From Pseudomonas sp. UBA2684 (lineage in GTDB: Bacteria; Pseudomonadota; Gammaproteobacteria; Pseudomonadales; Pseudomonadaceae), in assembly GCF_002354655.1 (NCBI RefSeq), contig NZ_DELY01000050.1, positions 15,885 to 79,884 on the forward strand: a DNA stretch of 64,000 nucleotides. Direction: 5' to 3'. The notes below the pieces were generated by a model. That model was given only the letters and a program-made list of their open reading frames with translations, was not told the origin of the DNA and did not search any database. Each line of letters starts with the position of its first letter. Positions within the stretch are counted from its first letter, which is position 1. Position numbers and translations under genes: made by a program. Of the stretch, positions 2,602 through 37,969 are shown one piece after another.

Positions 2602-5819
<3,218 letters not shown>

Positions 5820-28533: not shown

Positions 28534-28921
28534 GGGGCCGATTAGGATTCGACGCCGGTAGCAAAACTCGAGGGGCATGCCGAGTTGGTAACAGAACTCG
28601 TAAATAAACTGTTGCAAAACTCTATAATTGCCAATGATGACAATTACGGTGCCCAACTAGCTGCGTAAGCAGCCTAGTCGCACTTCTGGTAGCTTCGGCT
28701 CCAGCAATCATTAGGGGATGTCTGTAAACCCGAAATGATTGTCATATAGAACAGAATCGTCGCCTAGTACGTTGTGGACGAAGCGACTAAAACTTACACA
28801 ACTCGCCCAAAGCACCCTGCCCGTCGGGCGGCCAAGGGTTAACTCAGTAGACACGGCTAAGCATGTAGAACCAACAGCGGAGAACTGGCGGACGGGGGTT
28901 CAAATCCCCCCGGCTCCACCA
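28534..28921 (+). ncRNA. ssrA: tmRNA; tag peptide (A)NDDNYGAQLAA at 28630-28668
   Basis: 5' GGGGCCGATTAGGATTCGAC, 3' GGGGGTTCAAATCCCCCCGGCTCCACCA, internal tag ORF ending LAA-stop. Confidence 0.97.
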
Positions 28922-29060
28922 AATAAGCCCCTGATTTTCCTAGAGAAAGTCAGGGGTTTTTCTTTGGGTGTCGATAAATAGTCGATACCGCTTCCCGTAG
29001 AAGCATCCGATCAAGCTATGCTGGCACTTCAATAGCCAATCCAGATCGGAGCAGATAATC

Positions 29061-30445: not shown

Positions 30446-31291
30446 CGCAGTAAAGCCGGGCAGGAACTGCGCCTACTGGATGTGCCAGCCTATCGCCGTT
30501 ATGGCGCTTACGATGAGTTGCACGGCCTGGGGCTGGCACACAACGCCAGCAGCGAGGATGGGCGCAAGGGAGCCGGTCGCGCCTTCGCCGATACTCTCAA
30601 GCGCGCTACGGCCAAGCATTACGGTCAGCTAGCCGACATGCGCTTTACCGACTTCATCAAGACCAAAATCAAGCCTAAGGGCGCACGCTTGCGCCCCGTC
30701 GATTGTGAGCGCCTGCTGGGACACTGGGCCGCGCGCTACCGTCACGAAACCACGGCTGTAGCCCTGGCCGTGTTGATGCTGACTCACAGCACACGCATCA
30801 GCGAGACCCGGCAAGCCAAGTGGCGGTACTTCGATTTGGTCGGCAAAACCTGGCATATCCCTGCCGTCGACACCAAGACCAAGAAAGCCCACACGCTACC
30901 GCTTACCGCCCAGGTGTGCGCATTTCTGACCCGCTACCGCGCCAGCCAGTCCGCCAAGGGCTATGACGGAGCTTACCTATTTCCCGGGCTCCACGGACAA
31001 CCGTTAAACAGAACGGTCGCACAACTCGCCTTTTCCGCATTGGCGGGCGGGGAATGGACAAGCCATGACCTCAGGAAAGCCGCACGCACGGCCTGGACCG
31101 ATTTGGGTGTCGATTACCTTATTGGCGAGCTGCTGCTAAACCATGCCCTGAAAGCCTTGGACGTAACCTATATCCATACCTCTGCGGAGGTGCAAAAACG
31201 GCAGGCCCTGGAGCGCTGGCATGCCTGGCTCGATGAGCGTGGCTTTGCGGCCTTGCACAGCCCGGCGGACATTGCCTACGCCAGGACATAG
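30443..31291 (+). pseudogene. N-terminally truncated second tyrosine integrase
   Basis: TRISE, KTK, HDLRK, LLNH, TYIH catalytic motifs; no arm-binding N-terminus; abuts the rep stump. Confidence 0.72.
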
Positions 31292-31516
31292 CCAAGACCC
31301 ACCAAACCCAGCTAGCGCGCCCAGTCCCGCAGGCGGCGTGGGCTGGGCATCACCTTAGGAATTGATTACAGGGGAGTAGGTATTAGCGATGTAAACGGCC
31401 TTGCTTCAAGCAGCGTAGTTTCTGCATAGTGGCGACAAGCTTTGATAGCAGCTAAGAACCTGCTCACCACTCTGTCGTAGCTACTGCCGTGACAGCTCTA
31501 CTTATAAGGATTTAGG

Positions 31517-31753
31517 ATGGGCGGAAAACCAAGACCTAAACCGTCGATAGTTGACAATTTCGAAGTTGCTTTTGTCGAGGGACATAGAAAGTACTACTTC
31601 GATCCGGCTGAACAACGATACTACTCATGGGACTCTTTGCACGGAGAGTTTGAAGTTTTCAACCGGCGGGGCTTTCACCTTGGATCAGTCTGCCCGACTA
31701 CAGGCTCACTGCTTAAACCGGCGGTACGCGGCCGCAGAATTAATCCAAATTAG
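31517..31753 (+). CDS. Stand-alone colicin E3-like ribonuclease toxin domain (78 aa)
   Basis: YSWDSLHGEFEVFNRRGFHLGSVCPTTG aligns by eye with ColE3 YEWDSQHGELEGYRASDGQHLGSFDPKTG; AGGA RBS. Confidence 0.8.
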   Translation: MGGKPRPKPSIVDNFEVAFVEGHRKYYFDPAEQRYYSWDSLHGEFEVFNRRGFHLGSVCPTTGSLLKPAVRGRRINPN

Positions 31754-31762
31754 GAGACGCAA

Positions 31763-32074
31763 ATGAGCTTTATAAAACTTTGCCTGTCCGGTGATGTGCT
31801 AGCCGAAGAAATAGATAAATGTGTCGAAGATTGGCATGAAGGGCGTGCAGGTGGTGATCAAGAGCTACATGATTTCCTAGGAATGAACTGGGATGAGTAT
31901 GCCATCTGGGCTACAAACCCATCTATTCTTCCTTTCATTTTGGCCGCCCATTACAAGGGCATATCTCTAGATGAAGAGATCAATAGAGAGCGGTATGCCT
32001 TAGCTGCACGCGCACGCTCAGCTATTGAAGCCAAGCAAATCGAAAAATGGTTGCGTGTCATGGGTAAAATTTAA
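31763..32074 (+). CDS. Hypothetical 103-aa protein, putative antitoxin/immunity protein
   Basis: AGGAG RBS overlaps the toxin stop; its TAA overlaps the next ATG; acidic N-terminal half. Function inferred from position only. Confidence 0.7.
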   Translation: MSFIKLCLSGDVLAEEIDKCVEDWHEGRAGGDQELHDFLGMNWDEYAIWATNPSILPFILAAHYKGISLDEEINRERYALAARARSAIEAKQIEKWLRVMGKI

Positions 32075-33003
32075 TGACGCGAGAGGAAAAAATGGCCAGG
32101 CGTGTATTGGCTATGCGTAACTTACTCCCTCCGTTCGACCTAGTGGGTTTGGCCTCGGAATATGGTGATGTTGAATTCTTGCAGCTTCCGCACGGGGCTG
32201 ACGGAATAACAATTGGTATTGGTGGGCTAGAAAAACCCAAGATACTGATCAACTCTACCGCGCCCGAAACGCGCATGAAGTTCACACTGGCGCATGAAAT
32301 GGGTCATGTTGTTATCCCCTGGCACACTGGCACCATTGTTTCACACTTAGACCCTGGAGAAGAGGATTTCGAATACCTGCAAATGGAGTCCGAGGCGAAT
32401 CGTTTTGCAGCTGAGCTTCTAATGCCAAGCGATTGGTTATCTGGCGAATTCGAAGAGGCTAAATCAATAGAGGGCTACTTTCACGGCGTCCTCAAAAAAT
32501 CTGGCGCATCAAAAGACGCCGCCTTCATTAAGATATTTAAAGCCCTTGCGGCTCCAATCATTTGCGCCTATGTCGACCCAAACTTCCGTCTAATTCAACT
32601 TACAAGATCAAGTACAGCTCCCTATTTTTCGCCGGCAAGACAAACGAAAATAGACAAAACAATGTTCGGTTCCGATAATGAGTTTGAGCAGTTTGAGATT
32701 GACGACAGGATTTATTTTAGCTGGCGATTTACTGGGAAAAACATTACTGAGATAGACCCCAGGAACTGGCGGGAAATTTTAGCTGTTGTCCTCTCTGACA
32801 CTAATTCTGCGGAAAAGCTACAAAGCACAAATGCAACTATGGCCGCCGCTTTCCAGAAGTCTAAAGCACTCAGTGAGCCAGAAATCTGCGGGGCAATAAT
32901 TAGAACCTTCATGACAAAAGACAACTTGTCTTATATTGCGAGCCACCCTCTTTTCGAACAATACGTATTAAAACGAGTTAAAGAACTATCAGTACGAAAA
33001 TAA
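32074..33003 (+). CDS. ImmA/IrrE-family (DUF955) zinc metallopeptidase
   Basis: KFTLAHEMGH (HExxH) and ESEANRFAAELLMP motifs; no N-terminal XRE HTH. Confidence 0.88.
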   Translation: MTREEKMARRVLAMRNLLPPFDLVGLASEYGDVEFLQLPHGADGITIGIGGLEKPKILINSTAPETRMKFTLAHEMGHVVIPWHTGTIVSHLDPGEEDFEYLQMESEANRFAAELLMPSDWLSGEFEEAKSIEGYFHGVLKKSGASKDAAFIKIFKALAAPIICAYVDPNFRLIQLTRSSTAPYFSPARQTKIDKTMFGSDNEFEQFEIDDRIYFSWRFTGKNITEIDPRNWREILAVVLSDTNSAEKLQSTNATMAAAFQKSKALSEPEICGAIIRTFMTKDNLSYIASHPLFEQYVLKRVKELSVRK

Positions 33004-33408: not shown

Positions 33409-33436
33409 TTGACTGCCCACCCCTTATGCATACAAT
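33409..33436 (+). promoter_or_regulatory. Sigma-70 promoter of the retron
   Basis: TTGACT-N16-TACAAT immediately before the a1 repeat. Confidence 0.65.
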
Positions 33437-33650: not shown

Positions 33651-34613
33651 GTGAAGTTCGATGACAAAAGGATTGAATCTCTAGCTCATGTCACTCTAAA
33701 GAACTCACGAATTGTTCTAACTCAGCCCATACTTTTCCTCTGTGGCGGCCAGATTGATATTAAGTCAGTCGAGCCACTTTCTGTGCGTGGTGCACTTGTT
33801 GATCATCTACACTCAGTTGGCTGCGATTTAGCTCAGGGCATAACACTTGCCGAAGAGTTCGCAGACTGGATTCACGACTCTAACTATCGTGATCTTTTGG
33901 TTTTTGAGAGCGATATAGCCCACATATCCTCGCTCATAGTTATTATTCTTGAGAGCGCGGGGGCACTAACTGAGCTAGGGCTATTCGTAAAAAACAAGGC
34001 GCTTAGAAATAAAATTCTTGTTTTTGTTAGGCAGGATCATTACGAGCAAAACTCTTTTGTCAGGCTAGGCCCTTTGAGGCATTTGGAAGATATCAAGGAA
34101 ACAAGTGTGTGCGCCTATCCTTGGGATCAAGATAATATTAAGAAAAGCCTAGCGCCATCCCTTCAAGAAATGAGGGAGGATATTTTAGGAGCTGTCGCTA
34201 ATCAGGATAAAAGCGAGATTTTTAATGAGGAAAATGACGGGCATATATCTTTTGTAATATATGAGGTCATAAAGACATTCCGCGCACTAAAGCTATTAGA
34301 GATCGAGTCTTATCTGGCTATTTTAAAACTTGAAATTTCAAGGGAAAAATTAAGGCGACTCTTATTTCTTCTCGGTAAATTTAATTTAGTAGGCTGCTCC
34401 AAACGTGGCCACGTTTATTATTACTATGCTGCAACAGAAATTTTGAAAGTGGAATTTGCTGGAAAGTTTGACCAAACAACAGCAAAAATTGCAGCAATGC
34501 AGTTCTATATAAACAACGATGGCGAGTCCAAAAGGGTGAATGTCATTCAGGCTGCTTACAAGCAGTCTGTTTCGGGACCAGCTGCGACCTCATCAAATGG
34601 AACGGGGTCATGA
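33651..34613 (+). CDS. Retron effector, St85/Sen2 RcaT-like (NDT-like domain plus C-terminal wHTH-like region)
   Basis: LFLCGG, DLLVFESDIA, IILESAGALTELGLF motifs; 320 aa; lies between the ncRNA and RT; TGA overlaps the RT ATG. Confidence 0.8.
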   Translation: MKFDDKRIESLAHVTLKNSRIVLTQPILFLCGGQIDIKSVEPLSVRGALVDHLHSVGCDLAQGITLAEEFADWIHDSNYRDLLVFESDIAHISSLIVIILESAGALTELGLFVKNKALRNKILVFVRQDHYEQNSFVRLGPLRHLEDIKETSVCAYPWDQDNIKKSLAPSLQEMREDILGAVANQDKSEIFNEENDGHISFVIYEVIKTFRALKLLEIESYLAILKLEISREKLRRLLFLLGKFNLVGCSKRGHVYYYYAATEILKVEFAGKFDQTTAKIAAMQFYINNDGESKRVNVIQAAYKQSVSGPAATSSNGTGS

Positions 34614-35548
34614 CTATACTGACCGAGCTATCTCAAAAGCTTTTGATTAGCTCAGAAGAGCTAAAAGAATTTATCAATACCGCTCCCTATAGGTACAAGG
34701 TTTACCCAATCCCAAAGCGAAACGGTCGCGGGGTTCGAGTAATTGCGCAACCCACAGAAGTACTGAAAGCAATGCAGCGCATGGTACTTGACGACTTCCT
34801 CGCAGGGCTCCCTGTCCATGCCTGCGCAATGGCCTATAGAGATGGCTTAGGGATAAAGGATAACGCAAGTTTACATGTAAAAAACCAGTACCTTTTAAAA
34901 ATGGACTTTTCTGATTTCTTTCCTTCTATAGGCCCCGACGATCTTATTTCCCACATAAGAAGACATAGAGAAGGAATTGGGCGGGAGGATGCTTATGCAG
35001 TTAAAAAACTGTTTTTTTGGGCCAGGAAAAAAGACCCCACTCATAGATTGAGCATTGGTGCCCCGTCCTCTCCGTTCATCTCAAATACATTGTTGTATGA
35101 TTTTGATTGCAGAGTTAATGATGAGTGCACTCGCCTCGGTATTATTTATACTAGATATGCAGATGATCTTACCTTCACTACAAACAATAAAGGCGTGCTT
35201 TTCGGCATCCCAGATTTCATCACGCATATTTGCAAATTAGTTGACTACCCAACCCTCAAAGTAAATCATGAAAAAACGGTATTTTCTTCCAAAAAAAATA
35301 ATCGCCACGTAACCGGTTTGGTCTTAACAAATGACAACAAGATTTCTTTAGGTCACGATAAAAAAAGACACATTAGATCACTGATATACAAGTACTCTCT
35401 TGGGGGTATCCCCAGCGAGGAAATTTTGGCGTTGAAGGGTATGCTCGCATTTGCCAAACATATTGAACCTGTATTTTATCAAGCTGTCATGCGCAAGTAT
35501 GGGTTTCACGTCTTAGACTCAATCATGAGTTTTCAACCTAAAGAATAA
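34610..35548 (+). CDS. Retron reverse transcriptase
   Basis: Retron region X NASLH, DFSDFFPSI, GAPSSP, RYADDLTF, region 7 VTG. Confidence 0.95.
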   Translation: MTILTELSQKLLISSEELKEFINTAPYRYKVYPIPKRNGRGVRVIAQPTEVLKAMQRMVLDDFLAGLPVHACAMAYRDGLGIKDNASLHVKNQYLLKMDFSDFFPSIGPDDLISHIRRHREGIGREDAYAVKKLFFWARKKDPTHRLSIGAPSSPFISNTLLYDFDCRVNDECTRLGIIYTRYADDLTFTTNNKGVLFGIPDFITHICKLVDYPTLKVNHEKTVFSSKKNNRHVTGLVLTNDNKISLGHDKKRHIRSLIYKYSLGGIPSEEILALKGMLAFAKHIEPVFYQAVMRKYGFHVLDSIMSFQPKE

Positions 35549-35838
35549 CCCCTCAGCATTTGTGCCGTTGGCTGGGCTCGCTTGATGGTGTCGTGTAAGG
35601 ACACGCCTCGACACGGTTCGCCTTAAAAGCTACGCCGATTGTGAATCTGAGACCAAGCACCTTACGAAGACCATGGCAACATCTTCTTAGTGGGGTTTAA
35701 GAGTTTTTGCCTGGGACAATGGATAGCAACTGGCACTGTGTATGCCCTCGTGTATGCCGAGGCAACATAAAACACAGAAAATGCTTAAATATCATGGGCT
35801 TTTAGAGCTTGTTCAAACGACCCCGGCCCACCAAACAT

Positions 35839-35885
35839 ACATCTAAGGGCGTCCACGGACGTCCTTTTTTGTGCCTGAAATCCAG
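35839..35885 (+). repeat. 47-bp direct repeat, copy 1 (contains terminator hairpin)
   Basis: ACATCTAAGGGCGTCCACGGACGTCCTTTTTTGTGCCTGAAATCCAG, identical to 37923-37969; preceded by a damaged ssrA 3' copy. Confidence 0.92.
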
Positions 35886-35975
35886 AAAATACGGGGCTTT
35901 CAGCTCCATATAAGTCCACCTATTGGATATCTGATTTTCGGTGGTGAGCGCTAAATTCAAGCAGCTACCTAACGT

Positions 35976-36242
35976 TCAGCGTGAGCTTCTTGGCACAATA
36001 CCAACCTGCATACCGAACGGATTAAACACGCTATTCAAGGTCTGAACGGTCGGGTTGCTTTCGTCATGTTCTAGCTGACGCAACGCACGTAGGGACAGCT
36101 TACACATCTGTGCGAACCTTGCCTGCTGCAACCCCGTCACGTCCTTGCGTAAACGCCTAACTGCCTCGCCGATAGTGATTTCGCCAGAAGCCAGCTGCTC
36201 CTGTAGCTCGGTGAGAATCCGATTTCGTTCGAGAATATCCAT
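35976..36242 (-). CDS. XRE-family HTH protein, putative HipB-like antitoxin
   Basis: AVRRLRKDVTGLQQARFAQMCKLSLRALRQLEHDESNPTVQTL; TAATG overlap with the upstream hipA stop. Confidence 0.85.
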   Translation of the reverse strand: MDILERNRILTELQEQLASGEITIGEAVRRLRKDVTGLQQARFAQMCKLSLRALRQLEHDESNPTVQTLNSVFNPFGMQVGIVPRSSR

Positions 36243-37567
36243 TAGATGAGCCCCCAGTTTTTGAGCCGCTGAGGCAGATCTCGCAACGCTATGCGCGGAT
36301 GATTCATTGTCGCCGCAGGCAGTCCATCTGCACTCAACAAGTCAGGCAAAGCCAGGAAAGCTTGAGCTGCGGCCCTGAGCCGCTGAAATAGCTCATCAAC
36401 CTCGACCCACTCAGCAGCTTCATCGCAGGCAGCTTTCCAGTCGACCTGACCAGCCATCTCAATCTGCTTTGGCCATTTTGTTGTACGCGTTACACCTTCA
36501 TCATCCATAACCATAGGGGCCAGATCATAGATTGGGGCCAGGCTCATGCCTTGCTCAGTCCGAAGGATTGAGGTGTTTCGACCATGGTTGTCTGAGTTGC
36601 CAAGAATCTGGTTCAGTAAATCACGCCGCATGTACTCGAATACCAAATCACCAACCTGTTCGGCCTGTCCAACGTTTTGCCATAACGCGACCAAATTTCG
36701 TAGCACATCCGAATGCGACATATAGCTGCCAGCTTCGGCTACGCCTGACAGTGAATACATCGACTCAACAGCGACACGATTAACGCCGGCAGGACCAACC
36801 CCACGATCAAAGCGATGCATCCACAGGCTGGGCTTCTTTCCTTCCTCCAAAGCCAATCCTTCGGCTGCTATGGTATCGAGCCCCAACTGCCGAACCGCTC
36901 GATAGAAGCAGTACTCGCTGCGGAGGATGTCCTGATCGGTCTGACTGGCTTTGTTGCGTGCGAATTTCACAAACCAGTGCTGGACAGCATCTGCATCGGG
37001 CAATACAGCGTCGGGATGCAATGCGCCATGGCGGTCTTCTGTTAACAGTAGCTTTGGCGCCTCACCGCCTGCTCCAGTAGCACCGCCAATTGCAGCTCCC
37101 TGCTCATAGGCATACTCCAAAAAGCGTGAGTCGCGGCTGACCACTTCGTCTCGCGTAAAACCCAACACAGGACTGCCTGCGACTGCGCCTGCCGACTCCT
37201 TGATACGCAAATTTCCAATAGGCGCAGGCGTACAGCGCCCCAACAGAAACAAATCCAGGCTCATGCCCTCCGGTCGCTCACCACTCAAACGCTTCAGCAA
37301 AAAGCGTCTAGCCGCTCCAGCAGGCAAGATATCGAAGAGAAAGGCCGGAGCCTTCTTACTCCGCCAAGAGTCCCAACCCAAAGGTAAAGTGGCACTGACC
37401 GCGCCATTCAGACGAGTGCTAATCGAGTCAAGGGAGCCCACTAGATAGCCCTGCTCGTACCCATACGTACAAGGACCATCCAACCCTAGGTCAGGCTGCT
37501 CGAAACCAATCCCCATGGCGTCCTGCCATTCACCACCCGCATAGATTTGTAGAGTGAGCTTGTACAT
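36242..37567 (-). CDS. hipA: HipA-family kinase toxin
   Basis: Gly loop GATGAGGEAPKLLL, GNSDNHGRN, LAPIYDL; likely ATG at 37567. Confidence 0.88.
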   Translation of the reverse strand: MYKLTLQIYAGGEWQDAMGIGFEQPDLGLDGPCTYGYEQGYLVGSLDSISTRLNGAVSATLPLGWDSWRSKKAPAFLFDILPAGAARRFLLKRLSGERPEGMSLDLFLLGRCTPAPIGNLRIKESAGAVAGSPVLGFTRDEVVSRDSRFLEYAYEQGAAIGGATGAGGEAPKLLLTEDRHGALHPDAVLPDADAVQHWFVKFARNKASQTDQDILRSEYCFYRAVRQLGLDTIAAEGLALEEGKKPSLWMHRFDRGVGPAGVNRVAVESMYSLSGVAEAGSYMSHSDVLRNLVALWQNVGQAEQVGDLVFEYMRRDLLNQILGNSDNHGRNTSILRTEQGMSLAPIYDLAPMVMDDEGVTRTTKWPKQIEMAGQVDWKAACDEAAEWVEVDELFQRLRAAAQAFLALPDLLSADGLPAATMNHPRIALRDLPQRLKNWGLI

Positions 37568-37894
37568 AGCGATAACCGGTAACTTAATGCCTAAAACCTT
37601 AGCCAAGTCACAGCAAAAAGGCAATTAACTGCCGAAAAACCCTCTATAACAATCAAAAATAGGCACTTTAATACCTGCAAAAACTCTATACTCAGTAGCT
37701 AGACGCCCCCGCACAGCGCGGGGTCAACTCAGTAATGAGGATTTGAACCAGCAATTTGGATTCGCTACGTGCCTCTTAACGAAGGGCTCAAGGTTTCTAT
37801 ACTCGGGGCCGTGACTGTATGAATTCCAACAAATCATTGGCGAAAGGCAACTGGCCTAGAACCGTTGATTTGAGCAGGGGTAAGACGTTTAGGA

Positions 37895-37969
37895 TTCAAA
37901 TCCCCCCGGCTCCACCAAATACACATCTAAGGGCGTCCACGGACGTCCTTTTTTGTGCCTGAAATCCAG
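37895..37969 (+). repeat. attR: displaced ssrA 3' end plus terminator (47-bp repeat copy 2)
   Basis: 27/27 identity to 28899-28925, followed by hairpin AGGGCGTCC-AC-GGACGTCCT and a T-tract. Confidence 0.92.

Follow-up and report, generated by a model that had tools for sequence, protein, structure and literature searches.

Colicin E3-type ribosomal RNA nucleases (rRNases) are textbook interbacterial weapons. Here we describe such a nuclease encoded as a stand-alone protein of 78 amino acids (aa) by an open reading frame (ORF) at positions 31517-31753 of a 64,000-nucleotide (nt) stretch of Pseudomonas sp. UBA2684 DNA (contig NZ_DELY01000050.1; the whole stretch is referred to as the window). 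The ORF is probably the toxin of a three-gene, translationally coupled toxin-antitoxin (TA) or abortive-infection cassette, 31517-33003, that lies in a defense island integrated at the transfer-messenger RNA (tmRNA) gene and in which a peptidase would trigger release of the toxin. An initial annotation, made from the sequence by itself, had proposed that the ORF is an interbacterial toxin warhead repurposed as an intracellular self-toxin and not the orphan tip of a polymorphic toxin. Comparative sequence evidence supports this proposal because the ORF is closed, has stand-alone homologs that cluster separately, and is accompanied by a constant partner gene and often by a cytoplasmic peptidase. 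At the sequence level, the functional unit is the three-gene cassette rather than the ORF alone, as that annotation had treated it. The cassette consists of the following elements.

31506..31510, + strand: ribosome-binding site (RBS) of the toxin gene, AAGGA, 6 nt 5' of the ATG (read from the sequence)
31517..31753, + strand: toxin gene, 78-aa stand-alone colicin E3-type rRNase domain (PF09000, ColE3 match in the PDB, AlphaFold2 (AF2) model and Foldseek)
31763..32074, + strand: partner gene, predicted antitoxin of 103 aa (adjacency in 79/80 loci, AF2 model, phrog_14299)
32000..32011, + strand: codons of the LAAR motif of the partner (L80-A81-A82-R83), with the predicted M78 cleavage site between A82 and R83
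32074..33003, + strand: M78 (ImmA/IrrE/CapP-like) zinc metallopeptidase of 309 aa, HEMGH at residues 74-78 (Pfam, PADLOC)

The toxin gene has its own RBS, as had been noted, and four in-frame stop codons lie within the 90 nt upstream of its ATG, the nearest only three codons away; a longer frame ending in this ORF is therefore impossible. The Pfam profile PF09000 (Cytotoxic) matches the protein with an E-value (E) of 1.4e-11 (45 bits, gathering cut-off 22) over profile positions 27-79 of 80, and a phmmer search of PDB sequences returned colicin E3 chains only (1e44_B, E 4.9e-6). In the alignment to 1e44_B, WDSLHGEFE falls on WDSQHGELE and HLGSVCPTTG on HLGSFDPKTG, in register throughout. The motifs that the initial annotation had recognized by eye are thus present as W38-D39-S-L-H42-G-E44-F-E46, H54-L-G-S, P61-T-T-G64 and a late arginine, R73, and its equation of these with the catalytic residues of ColE3 is borne out, with D39, H42, E46 and R73 corresponding to D510, H513, E517 and R545. 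Our family alignment (A1) shows no variation at H42, E46, G52, H54 or R73 and at least 90% conservation of W38, D39 and E44; H54 is the counterpart of a second His that is conserved across Tox-ColE3 (Zhang et al. 2012, PMC3482391).

The AF2 model of the toxin, built from an alignment of 20 family members, has six strands and a mean predicted local distance difference test score (pLDDT) of 92.6. When searched against the PDB with Foldseek, its sole significant matches are the ColE3 rRNase chains 1e44_B, 1jch_A, 2b5u_A and 4v5k_AY (template-modeling score, TMq, 0.71-0.77; probability 1.00; 31% identity over ~84 columns), and the next-best match has an E of only ~1. As modeled, the toxin has the all-beta cytotoxic fold of ColE3, and alignment and model together confirm a complete rRNase domain of the colicin E3 type with its catalytic residues intact.

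None of the accompaniments of a bacteriocin is seen. Pfam searches of the window ORFs revealed no Im3-type immunity gene, no receptor, translocation or RHS/CdiA domain and no lysis gene, and no LexA box (CTGT-N8-ACAG, allowing up to one mismatch) occurs in 31290-31520; apart from that of an immunity gene, these absences had been noted earlier. The N-terminus is polar, basic and proline-rich, and it is on this composition alone that a signal peptide is judged to be absent. The toxin presumably acts inside the cell that makes it, unlike the colicins. A promoter scan in front of the gene found a weak -35/-10 pair at 31489-31518 that scores no better than shuffled sequence. Just 5' of this site lie two 17-nt direct repeats, 31409-31425 and 31447-31463 (AGCAGC-N7-CTGC, 71% alike and 38 nt apart), which might serve as an operator, although other Pseudomonas loci do not share them.

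Some further matches touch on the toxin. The last 50 positions of the PADLOC profile PDLC03890 (NsnC, Menshen) weakly match toxin residues 24-74 (E 9e-4), which hints that this known defense protein may end in a ColE3-like domain; the match was not used as evidence. A Pfam OCRE match fell below threshold and was rejected. The PrfH/RtcB2 pair, which repairs ColE3 damage, was also considered for this genome and set aside, there being no PrfH match above cut-off.

Short proteins of this kind form a large family, and the refuting outcome in which homologs are always the C-termini of longer toxins is not what we find: stand-alone homologs of 75-80 aa occur in many phyla. Loci were collected by a combined pattern and tblastn scan of one genome per species (185,579 species genomes), which gave 298 loci, the best 80 of which were sampled; in all, the family comprises at least 681 protein clusters and at least 298 loci. 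An exhaustive HMMER search of 1.84 billion representative proteins returned 663 matches. Those that align over residues 1-76 are proteins of 74-100 aa, down to ~40% identity, whereas in longer proteins (150-1,764 aa, among them Rhs-like ones) the alignment is confined to residues 30-76 and to the C-terminus of the long protein. A profile search of a collection of 5.8 billion proteins gave 681 clusters at E <=1e-8, almost all of 75-80 aa, including Bacillus velezensis, Pedobacter and Thalassoporum, to which cluster look-ups add Acinetobacter baumannii, A. junii, Klebsiella variicola, Erwinia, Serratia and Rhodopseudomonas palustris. The best 80 loci come from Pseudomonadota, cyanobacteria, Verrucomicrobiota, Planctomycetota, Acidobacteriota and Actinomycetota as well as from Nitrospira, Lachnospiraceae and Lysinibacillus, and nearly all of their toxin ORFs are short; Firmicutes and Bacteroidota are also among the taxa with stand-alone homologs. 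Close homologs, of 78-79 aa, are from several Pseudomonas species and Achromobacter, and NCBI has no name for them other than "colicin E3/pyocin S6 family cytotoxin".

Throughout this range the stand-alone proteins keep a uniform length of 75-80 aa and a conserved N-terminus of their own, P-x-P-x-P-x-F-L-D. Within the genus of the window, the full-length stand-alone form was found in 2 of 151 species genomes, while 39 of the 151 have domains 36-45% identical to it that end pyocin-like frames of ~400 aa; there is no other PF09000 copy in the window's genome. In a tree built from 125 catalytic cores, the label "stand-alone" versus "C-terminus of a long protein" changes only 6 times, compared with 41 times when labels are shuffled, and a tree that places all stand-alone proteins in one clade is not rejected (approximately unbiased test, p-AU 0.68). 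The family therefore appears from its sequences to be coherent and old, compatible with a single clade, and not a scatter of bacteriocin fragments. A separate set of proteins named "SAR2788 family putative toxin", encoded on large plasmids of the Bacillus cereus group (H7-H21), is ~49% identical to toxin residues 35-75 and, judged by this similarity, is another set of ColE3 cores under an uninformative name.

The second gene of the cassette is tightly coupled to the first. Its RBS, AGGAG (31752-31756), overlaps the toxin stop codon, and a phmmer search over all ORFs found a partner homolog as the next gene after the toxin in 79 of the 80 loci, usually with an overlap of 4-11 nt or a gap of at most 14 nt. 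No Pfam, NCBIfam or PADLOC profile matches the partner, so that no helix-turn-helix (HTH) domain or Imm family is found in it by these collections, and its sole profile matches are PHROGs without known function, including phrog_14299. In the AF2 model (45 sequences, pLDDT 82.8), residues 1-70 form an N-domain of five helices with pLDDT above 90, followed by a tail composed of a helix at 69-83, a break at 83-85 where pLDDT drops below 50, and a second helix at 87-99. Foldseek of this model against the PDB gave nothing at E <1, whether CapH, DdrO or another XRE-type protein, and against BFVD it gave only weak matches to uncharacterized proteins of Gordonia and Streptomyces phages. The N-domain is, as modeled, a new all-helical fold with no solved relative.

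Several lines of evidence suggest that this protein is the antitoxin. An M78 peptidase of the same family as the one encoded here is the third gene in ~50 of the 80 loci, yet ~25 have the toxin and the partner without it, and the genes beside these peptidase-less cassettes encode a class I synthetase of the TrpRS/TyrRS type, a CN hydrolase, an Fe-S protein and a WD40 protein. As these neighbors are housekeeping genes, toxin and partner make up the minimal unit, and since that pair is constant with or without the peptidase, the partner, and not the peptidase, is the likely neutralizer. The genes are small, co-oriented and coupled, and they travel together in varied contexts, which is the hallmark of type II TA pairs, in this case with the toxin gene in front. 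The partner is thus likely to be the cognate antitoxin of the 78-aa toxin, and from their gene arrangement we infer that the two-gene versions behave as ordinary type II TA pairs.

The partners of two-gene loci are often only 73-82 aa long and have no tail. Three such tail-less partners (loci L034, L053 and L030) end natively in ...GGLAA, ...RVVAA and ...RRVAA, which resemble the ssrA tag; native LAA or VAA ends are as expected of constitutively labile antitoxins. A metagenome-assembled genome of Syntrophobacteraceae (locus L049, 4218-5066) encodes the partner domain and a ROS/MucR zinc-finger DNA-binding domain (E 1e-31) as one fusion protein, a classic antitoxin layout of a neutralizing part and a DNA-binding part.

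The third gene encodes the peptidase, and its start codon overlaps the partner stop codon (TAATG). It matches Pfam Peptidase_M78 (E 1e-12), IrrE (3dte, E 1.4e-4) and the NCBIfam spr1629 repressor/antitoxin family (E 5e-9); PADLOC returned capP at E 3.4e-25 and RmrA profiles at ~1e-10, the latter over the catalytic core only. Pfam detected no HTH domain in its 309 aa. The active-site residues H74, E75, H78 and E105 and the block EANRFAAELLMP are invariant in 21 family members. When the peptidase-linked partners are aligned, W24, G40 and R83 are invariant, A81 and A82 are present in at least 90% and W96 and L97 are nearly invariant. The resulting motif in the tail, numbered around the predicted scissile bond, has the following composition among distinct peptidase-linked partners.

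P3: L, M, I, V or F in 51/51
P2: A in 50/51
P1: A in 51/51
P1': R in 51/51
P2': A, S, G or T in 51/51

The motif goes with the peptidase. The pattern [AV]AR[ASTPG] is found in 49 of 49 loci scored as peptidase-positive versus 4 of 26 scored as negative (Fisher test, 3e-15), and one of these four "peptidase-less" loci, L045, in fact has a peptidase. In long partners without a peptidase the motif is usually decayed (LAP, VAAD, PAAK, LIAK, PAGR). On a tree built from the toxin and the partner N-domain, with the tail excluded, the presence of the peptidase switches a minimum of 6 and a maximum of 16 times, and the motif tracks it in ~5 of 6 well-supported independent contrasts and never in the opposite direction (sign test, p 0.06).

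Related peptidases are known to cut their substrates at a matching position. CapP severs the ~100-aa CapH at the F82-R83 bond, which lies in helix one of the CapH C-terminal domain, and CapH R83A is uncleavable (Lau et al., bioRxiv 10.1101/2022.04.27.489752); DdrO is cut between L106 and R107 by IrrE homologs in a reaction stimulated by single-stranded DNA (PMC12828697). Based on these known sites with Arg at P1' and on the co-occurrence of motif and peptidase, the peptidase is predicted to cut the partner between A82 and R83.

These observations can be assembled into a working mechanism. The toxin would be made in the cytoplasm where, by homology to colicin E3, it would cut 16S rRNA in the A-site (A1493/G1494) and stop translation were it not neutralized by the five-helix N-domain of the partner; neutralization by the partner is proposed because its adjacency to the toxin is constant with or without the third gene. 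The CapP/IrrE-like peptidase would be an add-on trigger that cuts the partner just before R83 when stress or a phage provides a cue, which may be single-stranded DNA as it is for CapP and IrrE. As the N-domain alone appears to be sufficient in two-gene systems, loss of the tail needs some further consequence, and for this reason a degron step was added to the scheme. The fragment left by the predicted cut would end in ...E-R-Y-A-L-A-A, and the genome's own ssrA tag ends in ...Q-L-A-A. A C-terminal LAA or VAA is the C-motif-1 of ClpX and is unmasked by cleavage in LexA and RseA. ClpXP destroys an RseA fragment with a VAA end in a matter of seconds, and such an end is better than GAA or AAA (bioRxiv 10.1101/491043). 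In general, the cut would leave [LMIVF]-A-A-COOH (here ...YALAA), an end resembling the ClpXP degrons of ssrA, LexA and RseA, so that, speculatively, the tagged antitoxin would be degraded and the rRNase freed. That this constitutes a widespread relay, in which a peptidase sensing single-stranded DNA clips antitoxins between [LMIVF]-A-A and R, ClpXP removes them and the rRNase stops ribosomes, is possible but on balance doubtful.

The same gene order recurs on temperate phage. A tblastn search of phage genomes found matches in the Gordonia phages LitninMcQueen, Phabuloso and Kamaru. In LitninMcQueen (PP208924.1, locus L092, 1638-3463), the genes gp47-gp46-gp45 stand beside an integrase and HTH regulators and have the order of the cassette: rRNase, partner domain and M78/IrrE-like protein. 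The 168-aa gp47 has a C-terminal PF09000 domain (E 5e-13), the 284-aa gp46 has the partner domain at its N-terminus (41% identity over 64 columns; hhalign probability 98.9%, E 1e-17), and gp45, annotated as an "IrrE-like protein", matches Peptidase_M78 (E 3e-4). The phage version differs from the cassette in that gp47 carries an extra N-terminus of 112 aa, the gp45 peptidase is only 140 aa long, and gp46, unlike the 103-aa partner, has a different C-terminal domain and no AAR tail. Recurrence of the triad across so large an evolutionary distance, and on a temperate phage, supports a role in phage-phage or phage-host conflict. gp47 and gp46 are annotated as a "HicA-like toxin" and a "HicB-like antitoxin"; domain matches give no support to a HicAB assignment, which looks wrong.

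The cassette resides in an island of ~9 kb that is inserted at the 3' end of the tmRNA gene and also carries two integrases. GC content is 41-52% within the island and 60-65% outside. The tmRNA 3' end is part of a 30-nt direct repeat, 28896-28925 and 37892-37921 (97%). The other features are listed below.

28534..28921, + strand: tmRNA gene, with the island integration site at its 3' end (ARAGORN; Rfam RF00023, 189 bits)
33651-35548, + strand: retron of the St85/type II-A kind (NF038232, NF038233, PADLOC NDT_II-A)
35976-37624, - strand: HipA-like kinase (HipA_C, E 3e-30), then an 88-aa HTH_3 protein (Pfam)

The retron consists of a 320-aa effector (NF038232, E 7e-72) and a 312-aa reverse transcriptase (NF038233, E 2.5e-106) whose genes overlap by 4 nt; no Rfam match to an msr-msd RNA was found upstream of it, and a promoter-like site is seen upstream at 33409-33436. 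From their profile matches, the HipA-like and HTH_3 genes, in the outer segment of the island, are probably a TA pair of the HipBA type. Because a retron and a HipAB-like pair share the island with the cassette, the island is a defense island. A 68-nt block with a terminator-like hairpin at 35821-35888 occurs again from 37905 (91%), and the repeats suggest two successive insertions at ssrA. Outside the window, P. fragi and A. xylosoxidans have the identical three-gene order in neighborhoods that differ from each other and from that of the window. In three other Pseudomonas genomes (loci L011, L015 and L018; ~3774-3990), the cassette starts within ~200 nt of a tRNA 3' end and its terminator; its usual place tends to be the extreme margin of islands integrated at tRNA or tmRNA genes.

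Other readings of the three genes have to be weighed against this one. The partner and the peptidase might form a transcription switch of the CapH/CapP type, in which the partner, dimerized through its tail, represses the operon, cleavage only de-represses it, and the toxin is controlled by its level or by some other factor. The M78 protein is indeed nearest to CapP, the partner is the size of CapH with a conserved Arg in its C-terminal helix at the position of the CapH cut, and the L049 homolog is joined to a ROS/MucR DNA-binding domain; that fusion, however, suggests that the partner domain does not itself bind DNA, and neither an HTH nor any other DNA-binding family is detected in the partner, whose fold matches neither CapH, DdrO nor any XRE protein. 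Moreover, both genes follow the toxin on its own strand whereas capH and capP are divergent, there is no conserved operator upstream of the toxin, the toxin always has a partner even where that partner has only 73-82 aa, lacks the tail and lies beside housekeeping genes, and a free rRNase requires a neutralizer. We consider such a switch unlikely. Alternatively, the M78 protein could be the real antitoxin, as RmrA is in RosmerTA, with the 103-aa protein serving as an adaptor or chaperone. ImmA-type protease proteins are a known antitoxin hub for many toxins (NetFlax node D25), and the matches to RmrA profiles (~1e-10) and to the spr1629 family (5e-9) point the same way, but the former cover only the catalytic core and the peptidase does not have the HTH of RmrA. 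About 25 of the 80 loci keep toxin and partner beside housekeeping genes without any peptidase while the partner is absent only once, which makes this arrangement quite improbable.

It might also be argued that the toxin and its neighbor are the orphan tip and immunity cassette of a polymorphic toxin or bacteriocin, kept as a recombination store or left as a relic. PF09000 is otherwise found in colicins, pyocin S6, CdiA-CT and Rhs/LXG toxins with Imm-Cloacin or Imm45, pyocin-type copies are present in the 39 of 151 genomes of the genus mentioned above, and the NCBI name of the family invokes colicin E3 and pyocin S6. Against this stand the gene's own RBS and start codon with stops upstream, the 75-80-aa stand-alone clade with its own N-terminus, compatible with monophyly apart from the long toxins, the lack of a parent toxin in a genome with a sole PF09000 copy, a partner that Pfam relates to neither Im3 nor Imm45, and the tie of the cassette to a cytoplasmic peptidase across Gram-positives, cyanobacteria and phage. 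A simple pyocin or colicin fragment is ruled out by the upstream stops, the missing parent gene and the distinct clade, and the store or relic is very improbable.

The reading that we prefer, a TA cassette with peptidase-triggered release, has its own difficulties, and the following points weigh against it. Toxicity, neutralization, the cleavage site, the trigger, the degron and an anti-phage function are all what we infer for the cassette. The N-domain alone suffices in two-gene loci, so loss of the C-terminal helix need not free the toxin. A few loci (L075, L089) retain the motif without a peptidase; the sign test for motif and peptidase is underpowered, p 0.06 being the best attainable with so few pairs; and the fixed residues at P3-P1 could reflect the specificity of the peptidase alone and not a degron. 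No conserved operator or promoter was found 5' of the toxin, where the upstream DNA is unalignable among the Pseudomonas loci. In favor of the preferred reading, four PF09000 proteins distant from ColE3 are toxic when expressed inside E. coli, and all four cleave 16S rRNA where ColE3 does (Tian et al. 2022, PMC9304027); that study's E3L-1 to E3L-4 turned up in neither the profile search nor the cluster look-up for the stand-alone clade.

In the literature, Tox-ColE3 has been placed only in polymorphic toxins with Imm-Cloacin or Imm45 (Zhang et al. 2012, PMC3482391), and a 2023 review lists PF09000 only in bacteriocins and CdiA (PMC9990079). NetFlax describes the ImmA-protease antitoxin hub, node D25, and RosmerTA, in which the protease protein is itself the antitoxin (PMC10440598). 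No description of ColE3-type domains as TA toxins, or of the three-gene cassette, was found in the full-text literature searched, though one may exist elsewhere, and TASmania makes no mention of ColE3-type domains as TA toxins. The cassette is thus apparently undescribed, and its antitoxin domain has neither a Pfam family nor a solved fold. On our reading, a large ColE3-type family would serve as intracellular toxins with an antitoxin domain of their own, including in Acinetobacter, Klebsiella, Pseudomonas and Bacillus, and defense islands would recycle bacteriocin warheads. The link between the motif (ΦAA-R, with L, M, I, V or F as Φ) and the peptidase offers a testable hypothesis for how a stress-sensing protease can arm a toxin, a question that also arises for RosmerTA and related systems. 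The degron relay, if true, would be a new coupling of a universal stress sensor to a TA effector via a new antitoxin fold, common to bacteria of many phyla and to temperate phages.

Compared with known systems, the cassette combines familiar parts in an arrangement of its own. The toxin shares its fold and catalytic residues with the ColE3, cloacin DF13 and pyocin S6 rRNases (PF09000; 1E44, 1JCH, 4V5K), and unlike the ColE3 bacteriocins it has no receptor or translocation domains, Im3 (Cloacin_immun), SOS box or lysis gene; the N-terminal part of its domain is also shorter, 21 versus ~37 residues, and bears the clade-specific P-x-P-x-P-x-F-L-D. The predicted [LMIVF]-A-A-COOH end of the cut partner is similar to the degrons of LexA and RseA (...VAA) and of ssrA (...LAA), YALAA being the end of the E. 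coli ssrA tag, with the difference that here an M78 peptidase would be the cutter and an antitoxin the substrate. The likeness to CapH/CapP and DdrO lies in a peptidase closest to CapP with its HExxH intact and in a ~100-aa partner whose invariant Arg83, in the C-terminal helix, recalls the sites between F82 and R83 of CapH and between L106 and R107 of DdrO. However, CapH-type substrates are XRE HTH repressors whereas the partner has no detectable HTH and a fold that no solved structure resembles, capH and capP diverge from the operon that they regulate whereas here partner and peptidase are downstream of the toxin and co-directional with it, and the predicted outcome is toxin release and not just de-repression. 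RosmerTA (RmrT/RmrA) likewise has the toxin first, a zinc peptidase of the ImmA/IrrE type and a distribution over defense islands and phages. It is a two-gene system in which the HTH-peptidase fusion RmrA is the antitoxin, whereas the cassette described here has three genes, an HTH-less peptidase, a predicted dedicated antitoxin that is separate and also found without the peptidase, and a toxin that is an rRNase and not of the Rosmer type.

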